From Escherichia coli (lineage in GTDB: Bacteria > Pseudomonadota > Gammaproteobacteria > Enterobacterales > Enterobacteriaceae), in the NCBI RefSeq assembly GCF_003334255.1, contig NZ_QOWU01000070.1: a stretch of DNA of 19,728 nucleotides. One strand, 5' to 3'. How positions within the stretch are numbered: the first letter of the stretch is position 1; each line of letters opens with the position of its first letter. The position numbers and the translations under genes were made by a program. A model generated the notes under the pieces. The model saw nothing but the letters and a program-made list of their open reading frames with translations, was not told where the DNA came from and made no database searches. This document shows, one piece after another, positions 545-9,015 of this stretch.

Positions 545-3256
545 CTACATTCCAGGTGATGGTGGCGTCCACTCATTATCCTGAACTGGAGTATAAGATG
601 TGTCATTCCCCCCGGATATGCTTTTCTGTTGCCTGATATATTCGTGGTAGTACTGTTCACTACGCTGACGATGTAAATCCACATCCGGGCGGCTGATTAC
701 AAAGTGTCCATTTCCGGTTATTCCAGCTGCATTATGCCAGGCCACCATTTCCGCAAATACATCATTAAACTGTTGATATGAGCCTTCCGGTTCAAAACCC
801 ATTCCAGGCTCACGATCAAACAATACAGGAGCAATCAGATTCAGCTTATCCACCAGTTCATTTCTGTCCTGATGATGGTAGAACACCACACGGTCCCCAT
901 AATCCACACAGACTAACTCGCCATTCCTCCGATCACGAAAACGCACACTGCCATCTTTCTGCAGACGGGCTTCGAGAACGCCAGTGTCTTCATAAAGTGG
1001 AGTTCCTCCCGGTTCACAGATAATCACGCAGCGGTCGGCATTCGTTGTTCGTCGCTTGTCTTTGCGACGATCACGATAATCCCAGCCACGTAACTGTGAT
1101 ACTGCAGCTCTGTCTCCCTGTACCGCCTGTTGCTCCACCCACTGCCGGTAGGACAAAGGATACCACTTACCCTCCGCAATCAGTGACAACCGCTCTTCCT
1201 TCACACTCTCCTTCAGCCTGATCAGCGCCTGCATACGCTGCACTTCCGCAATATGGTAATGCAGCTTACGCAATTGTGGATCCCGGAACTGCACGCGGAT
1301 ATACGCCTTGCGCCGACGGCAGGCAGCATGAATTTCCCGTAACCGTTCTCCGTAACGTAAGTCGGGTTTACGCCAGTGCTCCTTCCATGCAAGATAACGC
1401 GCGCGCAAATCTTCCCGCGCAGCTGCACGGGCTTCACGGCGTTCACGACGCAGTACAGGATCGCGCCGGAAGCCGGGCTCCACTTCATCGCTGGCAGCAA
1501 GTTCCGGATTGTAGCGACATTCAGGCTTCACCCGTTCAAATATATCTGCACCTGCGATCTCAAATGGCCCTGCCTGCGGCTCAGCCCTGGATAATGTCAA
1601 ATCCGGGTGGATACTGCTGGCCTTCACTGGTGTCAGCTCATGATTAAACGCATCCACAATCACAAGACCATGATGCTGTTTCTGCAACATAAGCCCTTTA
1701 CGCGCAAACATCTCATGGCACGCCTGCCAGCTGAAATTCCCGCCCGCGATCATATCTTCAATCAACGACTCACACTGAACAGTCGTGTACCCCCACAGAC
1801 TTTCCTTATCAGAAAACAGTTCGCGCTTTATTGCTCCCTGTGGACCTGTCCCCATCCGCATACGATACCATTCGTAATCACTGACAGCCCGGGTACCGGT
1901 ACTGTGCCCCCGGAATCGTTCTCCGGGGACGACCTGGGTAAAAATATCCTTCGGTACAGGCTGCCATCCGCCTTCCTGATCCTGCATGTAATCCAGCGTC
2001 ATTAACGGCCACACACTGTCTGCACGTACTGGTGTCTGTTGTTTATCAAATCCATCATGCAGTACCAGATGCCCGTGCTGGATCCCCATCCATAATCCAG
2101 CCTTTGCCAGAGTTCTGTGCACATCCAGGCAACTTTCCAGCTCACCATTTCTCGCCATTTCCGGTAAGCGTTCGGCAAAATGACGGCAGGCGTACTGTTT
2201 CAGACTCTCCGTTTCTGCCACTTTTTCCGGCCGGATATCAACGTTTATCGCTTCCGGATCATAACGACCGGGTGTCCCCACCTGACTGAAAATATCTGTC
2301 GGTACAGGCTGATATTCTCCCAGTTTCCGCCCCAGTCTTTCAGCCGTCCATGACGGGCCGAACGAACTGAGCACAACACCTTCCCGCGATCTGTCCCAGC
2401 CATCCTTCACCACCAGTTCTCCCTCCTGCATCGTGATATACAGACCATCACGGGCCAGCCGTTTATGCAAAGACAACCAGTCCTGGGCGGGTTCTTCACG
2501 CAGCCCGGCAATCGACATCTGCGCAATATATTCCCTGAAGGTCTGCTTTTTCCCGCGTCGCCAGGCATTACGGCGCTCACGTACCAGCGCTGTTTTACGC
2601 ACAATACGGTTGCCCGGTGCATGCACAAAACACCCGTTATCCGGTGCAAATCCGTGCTTAAGTTCAAGTTCACGGCATGCACGACTGAGTTTTTCCTTGC
2701 TCCACGGAAGGCAATTGATATAGCCGGTTTCAGGATGAACACGATTCACTGCAACATGTACATGCAGGTTATCGGTGTCTGTATGAACGGCAGCTACATA
2801 CTGATGTTTTGAAAGTTCAAGGGATTTCAGTGTGTGACGTACGCAGTCAAAAAGCTGCTCAGGACGCGGGCTTTCATGCGCAGGCCAGGAAAGAATGTAG
2901 TGAAAAACAGGGTCTGTATCATCTTTGGAAAAATGAGCAAGGTCTGCTGCTTTCTGCATTTCTTCAGCCGCAGATTCAAGAGACAAACAGTTATGAAAGC
3001 AGGTCACACCATAGAAATTCACCCACTGACTGCCGTCTTCCATTACATCAATCAGGGATACAAATTTTTCGTTACGCAGGCGTGTGGCATAGTCAACAAG
3101 CCGTCTGAAGCGGTTACGGTGCGGGACCTCACCTTTCATTTCCGGGTCTGGTTTGAGTTCATCATCCTGCACATCATCCCGCACAGACGTGTACGCAATC
3201 AGGTCTTCAAAGGAAGACCTTCCGTCACGTCTTTTGGGCGGAATGATAGCATTCAT
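545..3256 (-). CDS. nikB: MOBP-family conjugative relaxase (NikB-like), 903 aa
   Basis: Relaxase histidine motif HTDTDNLHVHVAVNRVHPETG (HxDxxxxHxH type). Size and N-terminus (MNAIIPPKRRDGRSSFEDL) fit my memory of IncI1 R64 NikB (~900 aa). Lies directly downstream of a nikA-like gene and oriT. Confidence 0.88.
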   Translation of the reverse strand: MNAIIPPKRRDGRSSFEDLIAYTSVRDDVQDDELKPDPEMKGEVPHRNRFRRLVDYATRLRNEKFVSLIDVMEDGSQWVNFYGVTCFHNCLSLESAAEEMQKAADLAHFSKDDTDPVFHYILSWPAHESPRPEQLFDCVRHTLKSLELSKHQYVAAVHTDTDNLHVHVAVNRVHPETGYINCLPWSKEKLSRACRELELKHGFAPDNGCFVHAPGNRIVRKTALVRERRNAWRRGKKQTFREYIAQMSIAGLREEPAQDWLSLHKRLARDGLYITMQEGELVVKDGWDRSREGVVLSSFGPSWTAERLGRKLGEYQPVPTDIFSQVGTPGRYDPEAINVDIRPEKVAETESLKQYACRHFAERLPEMARNGELESCLDVHRTLAKAGLWMGIQHGHLVLHDGFDKQQTPVRADSVWPLMTLDYMQDQEGGWQPVPKDIFTQVVPGERFRGHSTGTRAVSDYEWYRMRMGTGPQGAIKRELFSDKESLWGYTTVQCESLIEDMIAGGNFSWQACHEMFARKGLMLQKQHHGLVIVDAFNHELTPVKASSIHPDLTLSRAEPQAGPFEIAGADIFERVKPECRYNPELAASDEVEPGFRRDPVLRRERREARAAAREDLRARYLAWKEHWRKPDLRYGERLREIHAACRRRKAYIRVQFRDPQLRKLHYHIAEVQRMQALIRLKESVKEERLSLIAEGKWYPLSYRQWVEQQAVQGDRAAVSQLRGWDYRDRRKDKRRTTNADRCVIICEPGGTPLYEDTGVLEARLQKDGSVRFRDRRNGELVCVDYGDRVVFYHHQDRNELVDKLNLIAPVLFDREPGMGFEPEGSYQQFNDVFAEMVAWHNAAGITGNGHFVISRPDVDLHRQRSEQYYHEYIRQQKSISGGNDTSYTPVQDNEWTPPSPGM

Positions 3257-3267
3257 CAGCGACTGTC

Positions 3268-3600
3268 TCAGCGTCCCATTAAGTCTCTTCGCAGAGTGTT
3301 TGCAAGTTCTGTAATGGCAACGAGGACCTCTGCATACTCTTTATCTCCCGTGCGTTTTCCTTCCACAAACAGATGCTTCTGCAGGTGACCAAGACGCATC
3401 AACTCTTTCAAAAAATCTTCATCAATGCGGGCATTTATCTGTTTTCCCAGCACAGTTTTTCTTATCAGAGTTGAAACTGTCAGTCCGTTTTTTTCTGCCT
3501 TTTCTTTAACAATCTCAGCCTCTTCTGGTGAAAAACGAACAGCAATGAGGACATTCTTTTGCCGTTTCTCACTGCCATTTCGGTTTTTCTTCTCACTCAT
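3268..3600 (-). CDS. nikA: Relaxosome accessory protein NikA (ribbon-helix-helix oriT-binding), 110 aa
   Basis: 110-aa product starting MSEKKNRNGSEKRQ with SD AAGGAG 6 nt upstream of the ATG at 3598-3600; the longer 139-aa ORF in the track would overlap the oriT repeat. Small basic protein immediately upstream of the relaxase, the R64 nikA-nikB arrangement. Confidence 0.85.
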   Translation of the reverse strand: MSEKKNRNGSEKRQKNVLIAVRFSPEEAEIVKEKAEKNGLTVSTLIRKTVLGKQINARIDEDFLKELMRLGHLQKHLFVEGKRTGDKEYAEVLVAITELANTLRRDLMGR

Positions 3601-3641
3601 GGTCTGCTCCTTACCAGGGTGTCGGGGCAAAGCCCTGACCA

Positions 3642-3700
3642 GGTGGTAATCGTATAGCCGTGCGTGCGCGGTTATACGATTACACATCCTGTCCCGTTTT
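3642..3700 (+). other. oriT: oriT: inverted repeat (arms 3646-3656 / 3673-3683) followed by nick-core-like ACATCCTG TCCCG
   Basis: 11-bp inverted repeat GTAATCGTATA / TATACGATTAC, then 8 bp later ATCCTG (3686-3691) resembling the MOBP nic core (RP4 ATCCTG|C); sits between nikA and the leading region. Nick position 3691|3692 is inferred by analogy only. Confidence 0.6.
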
Positions 3701-5152: not shown

Positions 5153-5463
5153 GGAGGAGCGAAGCTCCTTCTGCCGTCCGGGTCTTCGGGGATTTCCCCG
5201 CAGTGGACCTTTCCGACGGGGGACGCTCACCACGTCACGGGGCAGTTGTCCGGGGGCAGACGCAAAAGTTTTTGACGCCTGCGGCAAAAAGTTTTGTGGC
5301 TGGTACATCTCTCCCCTGGACGACTGAAACGGGATGTGGTCGTGTATGTACCCCCGGAAAGTCCGTCTGCGGAGAACAGGCCGCAGTGCGGCGGCAGACA
5401 GGCAGAGACAGCTGCGCCATCAGGCGCAGTGGCATTACACACCGTCAGGTGTGCAGGGAGCGC
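5153..5463 (+). promoter_or_regulatory. Structured GC-rich element resembling a single-stranded-DNA promoter (Frpo/ssi type), copy 1
   Basis: No credible coding despite many overlapping ORFs; dense hairpins (GGAGC gaa GCTCC, CGGGGAttTCCCCG, CTGCGCC atca GGCGCAG, CACACC gtca GGTGTG); contains TTGACG inside a hairpin; paralogous to 8317-8626. Confidence 0.6.
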
Positions 5464-5578
5464 CGCATCCGGCGCGACTGAAGAAAAACGACGGCACAAC
5501 AATGGCATGTGGTGGTCACTGGCACACCACTCCCGCACAGGTGAAAACAGAGAAAACCGCACGACATCTGCAATTAAA

Positions 5579-5667
5579 AAAAGTGAAATTTCTTCACTTT
5601 TTCACACTTATTTTTCGCGCTGATTTGGTGATTATGGTGATAAAATAAAGTGAAGTTTTTTCACTTT
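5579..5667 (+). promoter_or_regulatory. Twin operator-like palindromes and promoter upstream of the HTH gene
   Basis: Two copies of AAAGTGAA-N5/6-TTCACTTT (5579-5600 and 5647-5667) flanking an AT-rich -10-like stretch, ending 15 bp before the ATG at 5682. Confidence 0.55.
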
Positions 5668-5681
5668 TTCAAAGGTGTTTT

Positions 5682-5933
5682 ATGACCGGCTGGGAACTGC
5701 GAATCTGGCGAAAAAGCATGCTCTGGTCACGCGAAAAAGCGGCCAGAGAATTTGGCGTGACGCAGAGAACATGGCACGCCTGGGAAAATGCGGAACAGGT
5801 GGATGTCACCGTCTGGAGGACCACCCAGGCACTTTCAGTCCGTGACCTGCTGCCTCACATGCAGGGGATGCGTAAGGCAGATATCATCAGGCGACTGGAA
5901 AATGAACTGGGGGAAACGGCAGAGGATGTGTGA
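5682..5933 (+). CDS. Small helix-turn-helix (XRE-like) DNA-binding protein, 83 aa
   Basis: ATG with AAAGGTG SD; N-terminal segment ELRIWRKSMLWSREKAAREFGVTQRTWHAWEN fits an XRE-type HTH; preceded by the twin palindromes. Confidence 0.65.
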   Translation: MTGWELRIWRKSMLWSREKAAREFGVTQRTWHAWENAEQVDVTVWRTTQALSVRDLLPHMQGMRKADIIRRLENELGETAEDV

Positions 5934-5963
5934 GCGTGATTCACAGCCTGGCTGAATGCCAGG

Positions 5964-6122
5964 CTACTGCTCATCAGGAAACAGCTTTTTCAGTTCTTCA
6001 CCGGAAAGTCCCGTGACCTCCTGAATCCGTTCCGGCGGCCAGCCCATATTCCAAAGCCGGCAGGCTATTTCCCGCGCCACTTCAAGTGCGCCTTTTTGAA
6101 TAAGACGTTCTGCAATCGTCAT
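5964..6122 (-). CDS. Free-standing RpnS-like small protein (paralog of the Rpn C-terminal domain), 52 aa
   Basis: MTIAERLIQKGALEVAREIACRLWNMGWPPERIQEVTGLSGEELKKLF parallels the C-terminal tail of the adjacent Rpn protein; own ATG at 6120-6122 with SD CAGGAG; separated from rpn by a terminator hairpin. Confidence 0.6.
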   Translation of the reverse strand: MTIAERLIQKGALEVAREIACRLWNMGWPPERIQEVTGLSGEELKKLFPDEQ

Positions 6123-6146
6123 GCTGTTTGCTCTGCTCCTGCTGAC

Positions 6147-6172
6147 AAAAAAGCCCGGGATTTTGCCGGGCT
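6147..6172 (-). terminator. Rho-independent terminator immediately after the rpn stop codon
   Basis: Minus strand: stem AGCCCGG / CCGGGCT (6152-6172) followed by TTTTT (6147-6151). Confidence 0.6.
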
Positions 6173-6184
6173 TTGTGGTTCTCA

Positions 6185-7147
6185 TCAGTAAGTGATTTTC
6201 TTCAGTTCGTCATCGGAAAGTCCGGTAGCCTGCTTAATCTGCTCCGGCGTCATCCCCATTTTCTGAAGCTGGCACGCAATAGCCAGGGCTTTTTCAAGCG
6301 CTCCTTCCATGCGTCCTTCCATGCGTCCTTCCATGCGTCCTTCCATCCTGCCTTCCTGGCGACCTTTTTGCTCAAGACGTTCTGCGATAGTCATCAGTTT
6401 ATCCTCATGCTGCGGCAGACGCTCAGCCAGCGCCCGCATAAATTCCGGTGATACAGAGTCCCCTGCGTTAACGATGTAATGAATCAGAACACGCACCTGC
6501 TCGTCTGAAATTTCCACCATGACCTGCGGGAGTTTGTCCAGCAGCTCCATCATGTCACGATGGCGGATATGCTTCATCAGCAGCGTCAGTGCGGCCATCC
6601 GGCGATGGTTCATGATTTCATTGTCATCAACGACAGTGATATCAACCAGCGGAAACGGCTTTGTGTATATTTTAGCCGCAAGTGCCGGATTCTCAAAACA
6701 GTCCAGCCAGTTCATGCTGTACGGGTACGGGCTGCGCTCACCGTGATAGAACAGCACCGGAATCACCAGTGGCAACGTTTTGTGCTGCTCCAGATGTCTC
6801 TGCATCGCCGCCACACTGTAGCGTAACATGCGAAAAGGCATGTACAGATTTTCTGTGCTCTGGTGCTCGATGAGCGTATAAACATAGCCGTCTTCACCCC
6901 CGGTGGTTTTCACGCTCCAGAGGATATCGCTGGCGTACTGATGCAGGTCCGGCTCTACAAAGGTGGCGGGTTCCAGCTTCAGCGTGGACAGGTCGCACAA
7001 CTGCCGGTACTCCGCCGGAAGATGCAGTTCCAGAAAATCTCTGGCGACGTCGGGATTCGCCAGGAACGACCGGAACGCGGCATCATGCGGCGTGGGCGTT
7101 GTGGTGGTTTTCTTCTTACTCACTTTCCCTCCATGAGTTATTATCAC
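6185..7147 (-). CDS. Rpn-family (YhgA-like, PD-(D/E)XK) recombination-promoting nuclease with internal RpnS-like start
   Basis: N-terminus TPHDAAFRSFLANPDVARDFLELHLPAEYRQLCDLSTLKLE and the core ASDILWSV ... YVYTLIEHQS closely parallel E. coli RpnA as I recall it. C-terminal repeat linker and tail are present; an internal ATG at 6392-6394 with SD GAGGA would give a 69-aa C-terminal product. True start may be the GTG at 7121-7123 (SD GGAGGG). Confidence 0.8.
   Translation of the reverse strand: MIITHGGKVSKKKTTTTPTPHDAAFRSFLANPDVARDFLELHLPAEYRQLCDLSTLKLEPATFVEPDLHQYASDILWSVKTTGGEDGYVYTLIEHQSTENLYMPFRMLRYSVAAMQRHLEQHKTLPLVIPVLFYHGERSPYPYSMNWLDCFENPALAAKIYTKPFPLVDITVVDDNEIMNHRRMAALTLLMKHIRHRDMMELLDKLPQVMVEISDEQVRVLIHYIVNAGDSVSPEFMRALAERLPQHEDKLMTIAERLEQKGRQEGRMEGRMEGRMEGRMEGALEKALAIACQLQKMGMTPEQIKQATGLSDDELKKITY
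6302..6349 (-). repeat. In-frame 12-bp tandem repeat (3 perfect + 1 variant unit) encoding (EGRM)n in the Rpn linker
   Basis: Plus-strand unit TCCTTCCATGCG repeated head-to-tail; translates on the minus strand to RMEG repeats (QEGRMEGRMEGRMEGRMEG). Confidence 0.9.
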
Positions 7148-7204: not shown

Positions 7205-7534
7205 TTACAGTCGTGTATACAGCCCGGTATCCCGGGTAAAAAGCCACTGCAGCTGATCGCAATAAATCCCCTCGTGCTCCGATATCTGCGCTATCCGGGA
7301 ACCCTGTTTGCTGTAAAACGTCACCGTGTAATCATCGGCAAACGTTAATTTGATCCGGACAATATTAATATTATTTTTCGCAAAATATGACGGTAACTGA
7401 AAGCATAAACCGCATTCACCATTATCATCAAAATAAGCCAGATTTTTAGCGCCGGTCATAACAACAAATCGCTGGCTCCCCAGCTGTCCGAGAATTGTTT
7501 GAGCGACATGTTCAGCATAACTCATATTCTTCAT
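7205..7534 (-). CDS. Hypothetical protein, 109 aa
   Basis: ORF in an AT-rich block behind structured element copy 2; weak SD; no recognisable motif. Confidence 0.6.
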   Translation of the reverse strand: MKNMSYAEHVAQTILGQLGSQRFVVMTGAKNLAYFDDNGECGLCFQLPSYFAKNNINIVRIKLTFADDYTVTFYSKQGSRIAQISEHEGIYCDQLQWLFTRDTGLYTRL

Positions 7535-7600
7535 TCTAATATCCTGACGAGAGATATGCCGCAGGAGACACGACTACCTGCGACACTGATAATTGGGGAC

Positions 7601-7918
7601 TCAAGTTCTGTTACGCACAACTGCAAAGAGATATTTTTTCTGGCTTATAACTTTGCATTTTATTAAACGGGCTATTTCCCTGTAGTCTTTATTAAGAGGA
7701 ATATGAATCATGTCCCCGTTCAGTTCATTAAAAACGCACCCTTTTATATATAACGTCTCATTCATGATAAAACCATACATTGAAAAATGCTGATTTTCAT
7801 ACTCTTTACTGATTAAGTGAAAATATCCCTCCAGCAGTTCCTGCGGGGGATGTGGATCAATCATCCAGTTATCACCAATATATGAACATACTTCTGTTAT
7901 CGTTGTCTGAAATGTCAT
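7601..7918 (-). CDS. Hypothetical protein, 105 aa
   Basis: ORF with SD GGGGG 5 nt upstream of the ATG; strongly AT-rich relative to neighbours; no recognisable motif. Confidence 0.65.
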   Translation of the reverse strand: MTFQTTITEVCSYIGDNWMIDPHPPQELLEGYFHLISKEYENQHFSMYGFIMNETLYIKGCVFNELNGDMIHIPLNKDYREIARLIKCKVISQKKYLFAVVRNRT

Positions 7919-8316: not shown

Positions 8317-8626
8317 ACAGGAGCGAAGCTCCTTCTGCCGTCCACTTCTTCGGGGTTTCTCCCGCTGTGGACCTTTCCGATGGGGGCCCGTTTACCGCCT
8401 CACGGGACAGCTGTCCGGGGGCGGACGCAAAATTTTTAGCCGGGTTCATGGCTAAAAATTTTGTGGCCGGTGCATCTCACCCTGGACAGATGGAACGGGA
8501 GGGGGTTACGTCTGCCCCCCGGAAAGTCCACAGCGGGAAACAGGCCGCAGGGGTGGCGGCAGGAGGGAGGACTGCTGCGCCATCAGGCGCAGTTTCCTCA
8601 CACACCGTCAGGTGTGCAGGGAGCGC
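8317..8626 (+). promoter_or_regulatory. Structured GC-rich element resembling a single-stranded-DNA promoter (Frpo/ssi type), copy 2
   Basis: Shares blocks with copy 1 (GGAGCGAAGCTCCTTCTGCCGTCC, GTGGACCTTTCCGA, GTCCGGGGGC-GACGCAAAA, CCCGGAAAGTCC, CTGCGCCATCAGGCGCAGT, ACACACCGTCAGGTGTGCAGGGAGCGC). Contains a perfect 14-bp hairpin CAAAATTTTTAGCC / GGCTAAAAATTTTG (8428-8463). Confidence 0.6.
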
Positions 8627-9015
8627 AGGTCACGGCGCGACAGGGGCGGCGCGACCGGAACGGTCGCTGCAAGCCGGGTTTTCACGCATCGGACCGTAGC
8701 GGCAGCCCGAAACCGCGCCAGCGGGTTCGGCGGAGACTGGCGGGTGCGCCAGCAGCTGCCCGTCGGAGTCGGGCCTGACGACCGGATGCCGCCAGGCAGC
8801 CGGGAGCCGAAGTGGGCGCAATAAAAGACAGCCAGAAACGGTGACAGTGTCACGGAATATCACTCCTGTTCCCTGCATACAGCCATACACTACCTTCTGA
8901 CCGGAAAGCCGGGCCGGCAGCGCCGCAGGCGCTGCACCCCGCGTTTCCGGCAGGCGTCAGCCTGCCTGGGGTTTTCGCGCGGGCTGACAGGCGGCCTCCA
9001 CCGCCTGCCCCTGTA

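Follow-up and report, generated by a model that had tools for sequence, protein, structure and literature searches.

Rpn nucleases have recently been recognised as toxin-antitoxin systems for antiphage defence in which the antitoxin gene lies inside the toxin gene. The long product, RpnL, is a toxic nuclease that is blocked by RpnS, a small protein made from an internal start (Zhong et al., PNAS 2023, PMC10400941). The number of 4-aa repeats in helix 1 of RpnS differs among strains and sets specificity; a single repeat added to RpnCS abolishes its action on RpnCL, and RpnAS does not block RpnBL, nor RpnBS RpnAL (Fig. 3D,E legend, PMC10400941). For the plasmid-borne RpnP2 of E. coli ECOR13, which protects against T-even phages, the RpnP2L* form without the internal start is strongly toxic, and RpnP2LS is non-toxic and protective (PMC10400941). 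The same study described separately encoded RpnS copies, termed RpnSs, on chromosomes and plasmids, including ypaA after rpnE (RpnESs) and a copy after rpnC. Each copy groups with the tail of the rpn gene upstream of it; the copies differ in 4-aa repeats and can disappear through deletion or through fusion to the N-domain, and the YpaA protein has been detected by SPA tagging (PMC10400941). Here we analyse a locus of this kind in a 19,728-nt stretch of E. coli DNA (contig NZ_QOWU01000070.1; the window, below), where an rpn gene with an internal rpnS start is followed on the same strand by a free-standing 52-aa RpnS-like gene, which we call Ss.

We suggest, with a probability of roughly 0.55, that the locus is an RpnP2-type toxin/intragenic-antitoxin antiphage module that carries a spare, orthogonal RpnSs-type tail cassette, exchanged by recombination at the tail start. 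In the proposed mechanism, the 69-aa RpnS made from the internal ATG, which has the same helix-1 tract as RpnL, would hold RpnL inactive by tail-tail pairing and act as its cognate antitoxin; such a block has been shown experimentally for the near-identical RpnP2 allele (PMC10400941). Ss would be made in small amounts from transcripts that pass the terminator-like hairpin ahead of it, would fold as an RpnS-like three-helix unit forming its own homodimer, and would be orthogonal to the adjacent RpnL. It would thus serve as a reserve specificity cassette, and as an antitoxin only for RpnL variants whose tails carry the FxxG repeats typical of Ss (F-type tails). Tail modules would arise and move by homologous recombination in their conserved first ~21 nt (ATGAC.AT.GCAGAACGTCTT), and the same exchange could fuse Ss to a nuclease or stack more tails.

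The nuclease gene, rpnL (6185-7123, minus strand), ends at TGA 6187-6185 and belongs to the Rpn PD-(D/E)XK family. Its product matches the Pfam Transposase_31/YhgA-like family (PF04754) with E=2.4e-78 over residues 11-207, and the NCBIfam Rpn family model TIGR01784 with 180 bits (cut-off 52.1). The first-pass annotation had made the same family assignment, with a length of 320 aa; the family stands and the length does not. A 320-aa product follows mechanically from the longest open reading frame (ORF), which begins at an in-frame upstream GTG at 7147. The NCBI annotation pipeline (PGAP) on plasmid NZ_CP060058.1, which is 100% identical to the window, and the published RpnP2 constructs both begin the gene at GTG 7123-7121, which gives 312 aa and lies behind a Shine-Dalgarno (SD) motif, GGAGGG, at 7127-7132. 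The supplementary oligonucleotide table of Zhong et al. (PMC10400941) contains the RpnP2 synthetic gene sequences and allows a direct comparison. The coding start of gBlock AO591 is 99% identical to window 7123-7025 over its first 99 coding nt, with the same GTG, and a second synthetic-gene fragment is 96.5% identical to window 7123-6726. Over the first 132 residues the window protein differs from published RpnP2 only by T6N and by the four changes engineered into the active-site mutant gBlock AO730 (D14A, D66A, E86A, Q88K); all four of these residues are intact in the window. The shared start, the near-identical sequence and the intact catalytic residues identify the window gene as an allele of the experimentally characterised RpnP2. 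By analogy with RpnA and the near-identical RpnP2L*, for which activity and toxicity have been published, RpnL would be a PD-(D/E)XK DNA endonuclease. PADLOC returned no match for RpnL, RpnS or Ss, and its 2023 release apparently has no Rpn model.

Within rpnL, an ATG at 6394-6392 opens a 69-aa frame that shares the C-terminus of the nuclease (rpnS, 6185-6394, minus strand), and an SD motif, GAGGA, lies 7 nt upstream at 6402-6406. Both had been singled out in the first-pass annotation and are present as it described them. The product, MTIAERLEQKG-(RQEG)(RMEG)4-ALEKALAIACQLQKMGMTPEQIKQATGLSDDELKKITY, begins with MTIAERL, as does the crystallised RpnA-S, and continues after its repeats with ALEKA; NCBIfam Rpn models match this tail. 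We therefore predict that translation of RpnS starts at this ATG, where the C-terminal three-helix domain begins. The five 4-aa repeats, (RQEG)(RMEG)4, are encoded by a hypervariable tract of 12-nt units at 6302-6361 that would form helix 1, and by construction this tract is identical in RpnL and RpnS. Internal promoters have been reported in rpn genes (PMC10400941), and a consensus scan points to a candidate for RpnS at 6669-6696 on the minus strand, a sigma-70-like TTGAGA-16-TAAAAT with 10/12 matches.

Ss itself occupies 5964-6122 on the minus strand, from ATG 6122-6120 to TAG 5966-5964, and encodes the 52-aa product MTIAERLIQKGALEVAREIACRLWNMGWPPERIQEVTGLSGEELKKLFPDEQ. The first-pass annotation had suggested that it resembles the Rpn C-terminus, and proper alignment bears this out: BLASTP aligns it with the Rpn protein at E=9e-14, 31/47 residues being identical (66%), the first seven residues of Ss and the Rpn tail are the same (7/8 over the first eight), and the single gap, of 20 residues, is exactly the repeat tract. 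Residues 1-45 of Ss also align end to end with the RpnA-S crystal structure, PDB 7TH0 (E=1e-3), including the MTIAERL start. An AlphaFold model of Ss is helical (pLDDT 75) and has 7TH0 as its top Foldseek match, with a TM-score of 0.62-0.69 and an E-value that falls short of significance, given how small the domain is. Database homologues of Ss carry the precomputed Pfam domain PF27070, HTH_Rpn_C, from a newer Pfam release; a local Pfam-A scan of Ss itself had no match. Among Rpn tails, the adjacent one is the closest to Ss, followed by that of a second plasmid allele, B (21/40), and by RpnA (22/44), RpnB (19/44), YpaA (19/44), RpnE (18/44) and RpnC (16/43); identity to the K-12 RpnA/B/C/E tails thus spans 37-50%. 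When 1.8 billion representative proteins were searched with Ss, only 37 matches and no Rpn of ~300 aa came up, the 52-aa query being too short to find distant full-length relatives. Four longer proteins of this representative set (P0138, 528 aa; P0143, 736 aa; P0139; P0140) contain 3-5 separate stretches that match it and may consist of tandem HTH_Rpn_C-like units in one polypeptide.

The start of Ss is well defined by comparison among plasmids. PGAP often calls a longer, 73-aa form whose ATG overlaps the rpn stop, and we rejected this form: in several plasmids (L003, L005, L006, L013 and L018 in our set) that ATG is lost or indels disrupt the frame of the extension. The ATG of MTIAERL is always kept, and we take the 52-aa start to be the conserved one. 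In our comparison Ss is a genuine, conserved RpnS paralogue and a complete tail module.

The gene is also widespread. With tblastn, Ss was found in 2,031 of 72,556 plasmid records, nearly all of them conjugative plasmids of the I-complex (IncI1, I-gamma, K, B/O, Z) from Escherichia, Salmonella and Shigella. Of the 103 related loci that we examined, about 100 retain an intact Ss and 93 an intact pair of Rpn tail and Ss; frameshifted copies of Ss occur in L011 and L021. Over 26 DNA haplotypes of Ss, synonymous diversity (pS) is 0.11 and nonsynonymous diversity (pN) 0.03, a pN/pS of 0.27, which compares with 0.15 for the Rpn tail and indicates that Ss is under purifying selection.

Ss has a repeat alphabet of its own. 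The first-pass annotation held that the gene lacks the repeat linker; this is true of the window allele, and it is one state of a polymorphism, since the tract (F[DEK][EQK][GS])n, or FxxG type, has n=0-6 among plasmids. In keeping with such a tract, the tblastn matches grow in length by 12 nt at a time, between 156 and 216 nt. The Rpn tail has 0-8 units among the 93 loci, of RQEG/RMEG type or, in other alleles, IQQG/IQKG. Among the 93 intact pairs, the repeat number of Ss shows no co-variation with that of the Rpn tail: one identical Ss protein adjoins Rpn tails with 1, 4, 5, 6, 7 or 8 repeats, and the same Ss also stands behind divergent Rpn alleles with IQQG-type tails; in all, three different tail types precede it. 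In the window, the helix-1 tracts of Ss and the adjacent RpnL differ both in composition (FxxG versus RxEG) and in copy number (0 versus 5), and for this reason we propose that Ss is orthogonal to its neighbour. Given that one added repeat was enough to end inhibition in RpnC, a five-unit difference combined with a different sequence makes Ss an unlikely matched partner of the adjacent RpnL. Three Ss variants (P0022, P0024 and P0039) have in-frame internal duplications elsewhere in the protein (ALEVAREM-ALEVAREIA; EIACRLR-EIACRLRD), and slippage or duplication is thus not confined to the FxxG tract.

The 62-nt spacer between rpn and Ss contains conserved elements. An intrinsic-terminator-like hairpin, AAAGCCCGG / CCGGGCTTT followed by a T6 tract (6147-6174, minus strand), starts 13 nt past the stop, as the first-pass annotation had noted. 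Its stem pairs GCCCGG (6171-6166) with CCGGGC (6158-6153) and is extended by AAA/TTT (6174-6150) to give 6-9 bp, and the T6 lies at 6152-6147. A 91-nt region around it folds at -24.2 kcal/mol (z=-2.5). A simple scan for the terminator consensus did not list this hairpin, probably because maximal extension of the stem consumes part of the T-run. Downstream is a conserved segment, CAGCAGGAGCAGAGCAAACAGC (6123-6144, minus strand), the putative ribosome-binding region of Ss, with a strong AGGAG 13 nt from the ATG and at 8 nt only a weak GAG. Over 19 spacer haplotypes, the hairpin stem is invariant apart from a compensatory change of A-T to G-C in the pair at its base, the tract CAGCAGGAGCAGAG is almost invariant as well, and the stretch that leads from the stop to the hairpin is variable. 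Together with purifying selection, this conserved spacer argues that Ss is a functional, protein-coding gene whose upstream signal is conserved, short of proving that Ss is expressed.

Natural rearrangements suggest how such tails move. A chimeric query that joined the end of the Rpn N-domain to the Ss tail matched annotated Rpn proteins in one piece and at full length in at least 18 plasmids (H88 and H90-H106), R621a and at least 17 others, which join the same Rpn N-domain to an Ss-type tail. In the IncI-gamma reference plasmid R621a (NC_015965.1, 838-1761), an N-domain identical to that of the window at 240/243 residues continues without a break into a tail of Ss type that has three FxxG repeats, and there is no separate Ss. 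The junction, ATGACTATCGCAGAACGTCTT|ATACAGAAAGG, falls inside the ~21 nt common to all tail starts. RpnL with an F-type tail is also found on Shigella plasmids. One of the fusion records names the gene ygdB, after R64 nomenclature. Stacked arrangements occur too: in L037 (1009-1695) and L042, an allele-B Rpn with an IQQG tail is followed by a free RQEG-type tail and then by Ss, each free tail behind its own unit of stop, TGATGAGA, hairpin and spacer. In four further loci (L075-L078), an A-type N-domain has an IQKG-type tail. Unequal homologous recombination between tail starts explains all the fused, stacked and swapped states, and it matches the "fusion" and "deletion" events of RpnS copies mentioned by Zhong et al. 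(PMC10400941).

A broader parallel is offered by CdiA-CT/CdiI and Rhs orphan arrays, in which alternative C-terminal modules are stacked downstream and can be swapped by homologous recombination at a conserved junction. The window, R621a, L037 and L042 resemble these arrays, by analogy, in having stacked, exchangeable C-terminal modules. Unlike in those systems, the module swapped here would be the toxin's own oligomerisation and antitoxin domain, in place of a toxin tip with its separate immunity gene, and the cassettes have only about 50-75 codons with a slippage-prone repeat.

The closest described relative remains ECOR13 RpnP2, which is essentially the same gene with the same internal-start RpnS architecture. 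It also has Ss downstream. The published RpnP2LS construct includes only 101 bp downstream of rpn (PMC10400941), and its reverse primer, AO619, is the complement of CTTATACAGAAAGGTTTCGACG, which encodes LIQKGFD, from the beginning of Ss. ECOR13 therefore has Ss as well, and the construct truncates it after about 13 codons. Since this truncated form is non-toxic and protective, RpnS alone suffices and Ss is dispensable for neutralisation. The supplementary text of Zhong et al. (PMC10400941) gives no explicit name to the small gene downstream of RpnP2. ECOR13 differs from the window in its 5´ flank, where homology breaks at the rpn SD motif, and in its Ss, which has at least one F-type repeat; the window combines five tail repeats with a repeat-free Ss. 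The chromosomal pairs rpnE-ypaA and rpnC-rpnCSs share with the window a free tail copy directly downstream, on the same strand and with the MTIAERL start, that resembles the tail just upstream more than any other tail and has a different number of repeats (by one repeat for YpaA and the RpnE tail). In contrast to Ss, which is set off by the 62-nt spacer with its terminator-like hairpin, ypaA lies 12 nt after rpnE behind a strong SD and no hairpin. Compared with ypaA-type copies, Ss is also more diverged from its neighbour (66%), has its own FxxG repeat unit and resides in a plasmid leading region. RefSeq lists ypaA (L070, 9817-10002) as a pseudogene, yet its RpnS-like ORF of 61 codons is intact and has a strong SD, an inconsistency of annotation.

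Downstream RpnSs genes have thus already been described, and the kind of gene that Ss represents is known (PMC10400941). What our comparison would add is the spread of Ss over ~2,000 plasmids with selection acting on it, its own repeat alphabet and the independent variation of the two tracts; the natural fusions, stacked cassettes, spacer with a terminator-like hairpin and leading-region location; and the recognition that the published RpnP2 construct has a truncated Ss. The basic published picture is unchanged, and the locus is useful as a well-defined test system for RpnSs function, not as a discovery. With ~2,000 plasmids, two independent tracts, fusions and stacks, the plasmid family is a natural experiment on RpnL-RpnS specificity, and it could show whether spare tails are reserve cassettes or orphan antitoxins.

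The position of the locus on the plasmid bears on what Ss may do. The window contains nikB (545-3256) and nikA (3268-3600), both on the minus strand, and an R64-type origin of transfer (oriT) whose core, at 3620-3692 on the plus strand, consists of GGGTGTCGGGGCAAAGCCCTGACCAGG, then the inverted repeat AATCGTATAGCC...GGTTATACGATT, then the nick sequence CATCCTG|T (3685-3692). As in other MOBP systems, we take the plus strand to be the transferred one (the T-strand), so that the region above 3692 would enter the recipient first. The minus-strand genes rpn and Ss, at a distance of 2.3-3.4 kb from the nick, read in the direction of oriT; the T-strand is therefore their template. The leading-region location put forward in the first-pass annotation is thus upheld. 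Direct repeats of ~325 nt (5155-5478 and 8319-8641), 80-88% identical, flank a unit of two small ORFs (7205-7918), rpn, Ss and a helix-turn-helix (HTH) gene. The repeat at 8319-8641 is predicted to fold, as single-stranded DNA (ssDNA) of the T-strand, into a long imperfect hairpin (-125 kcal/mol, z=-9.7) that is similar to Frpo/ssi single-strand promoters; an Rfam scan of the whole window, the flanking repeats included, found no family. A toxic nuclease module is thus among the first genes that enter the recipient in conjugation of IncI/K/B/O/Z plasmids, which are major carriers of extended-spectrum beta-lactamase (ESBL) and other resistance genes. Orphan antitoxins have been reported among leading-region genes and are enriched there (Samuel et al., Nature 2024, PMC11541004), in a study that does not mention Rpn or YhgA. 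Like them, Ss is a small antitoxin-type gene transcribed from the T-strand near hairpins that resemble ssDNA promoters; unlike them, it adjoins a full toxin, and so is no orphan in the strict sense.

Ss could instead be a second cognate antitoxin, one that binds the adjacent RpnL and supplies more inhibitor under separate regulation, for instance while the plasmid becomes established in a new host; a toxin expressed early from the leading region might call for such additional buffering. The high identity between Ss and the neighbouring tail, with its seven shared N-terminal residues, fits this role, as do the conserved SD-like tract in the spacer and the finding in R621a that an Ss-type tail works in nature with the same N-domain. 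However, the extra antitoxin proposed in the first-pass annotation is not needed, as RpnP2LS is non-toxic and protective with Ss truncated. Mismatch by one unit ends inhibition in RpnC, and here five units and the sequence differ; moreover, the repeat numbers vary independently over the 93 loci, and the same Ss occurs behind three tail types. We therefore hold this role to be rather unlikely. That Ss is a non-functional leftover of past recombination, unexpressed and kept by recency or hitch-hiking, is more doubtful again. The upstream terminator-like hairpin, the poor SD spacing, the RefSeq pseudogene status of the K-12 counterpart ypaA, the dispensability of Ss in published assays and the frameshifted copies in L011 and L021 would all suit a relic. 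Against it stand the pN/pS of 0.27 at a pS of 0.11 over 26 haplotypes and the presence of the gene, intact in about 100 of 103 loci, in ~2,000 plasmids of several Inc groups. Its hairpin and ribosome-binding-like segment are better conserved than the adjacent part of the spacer, and the related YpaA protein has been detected by tagging.

Two further possibilities place the target of Ss in the recipient. As an anti-defence decoy, a role put forward in the first-pass annotation, Ss would be expressed early from the leading region and would neutralise Rpn nucleases of the recipient, chromosomal or encoded by a sibling plasmid. Its position, its T-strand-templated orientation, the Frpo-like ssDNA hairpin elements that flank the unit and the enrichment of leading regions in orphan antitoxins (PMC11541004) are in line with such a role, and matching targets exist in the F-type-tail RpnL of R621a and Shigella plasmids. 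Against this, Ss, at 37-50% identity, is as far from the K-12 tails as the RpnA and RpnB tails are from each other, or farther, and the small proteins of that pair do not cross-inhibit; the Ss homologues we found include no full-length Rpn outside this plasmid family. In addition, Rpn has been shown to act on phages, not plasmids, a terminator-like hairpin precedes Ss, and I-complex plasmids with an F-tail Rpn would probably be kept out largely by incompatibility or entry exclusion. We regard a decoy as decidedly improbable. A narrower version, in which Ss is an orphan antitoxin in conflict between plasmids, seems to us somewhat less improbable than that but still unlikely. Early leading-region expression would here act against the F-type-tail RpnL of resident siblings, with FxxG number as the specificity code and repeat variation as the trace of an arms race, and the cassette would also let the plasmid's own nuclease switch tail by a single homologous deletion.

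The reserve-cassette reading that we prefer has difficulties of its own. The terminator-like hairpin and the 13-nt distance of the strong SD motif from the ATG both count against it, and the purifying selection on Ss and its intact ATG could stem from periods in which the cassette was fused to the nuclease, instead of reflecting a role of the free protein. Orthogonality is extrapolated, by analogy, from a single published experiment with RpnC, and helices 2-3 of Ss are 60-70% identical to those of the Rpn tail, so that cross-binding may occur. Equal repeat counts in Rpn and Ss are also scarce, at 2-3 of ~48 distinct combinations where ~7 would be expected by random pairing, a weak signal (permutation P ~0.015-0.05) from biased sampling and without phylogenetic correction. 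An avoidance of equal numbers, suggested by 0/21 pairs and then by 1/42 combinations (P=0.006), faded with sampling and is not claimed.

The surroundings of the locus are mosaic. Homology with most related plasmids ends at 7132/7133, at the rpn SD motif, and most of 2,040 plasmid matches cover 5700-7132. The genes upstream of rpn in the window, a 109-aa ORF (7205-7534) and a 105-aa ORF (7601-7918), occur in only seven plasmid records; other plasmids have genes for 88 aa and 129/144 aa in their place. We read 7132/7133 as a breakpoint between mosaic segments that coincides with the start of the gene. An NCBIfam scan gave no names for the neighbouring small ORFs. On the other side of Ss, a convergent gene for an 83-aa HTH protein (5682-5933, plus strand; Pfam HTH_31, E=1.2e-4) is present in every annotated locus examined. 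Between the two convergent genes lies a hairpin without a T-run, GCCTGGC-ATTCA-GCCAGGC (5946-5964), noted from its sequence alone, that is kept behind the fused tail in R621a. Two AT-rich direct repeats of 42 nt (5573-5614 and 5640-5681), 81% identical and each with the palindrome AAAGTGAA(N4-5)TTCACTTT, stand just upstream of the HTH gene and may be its operator/promoter region. The block of rpn, Ss, HTH and DUF4942 genes was also seen on six records of 5-6 Mb (L041, L048, L090, L091, L097 and L098), which may be chromosomally integrated I-complex segments or co-assembled replicons.

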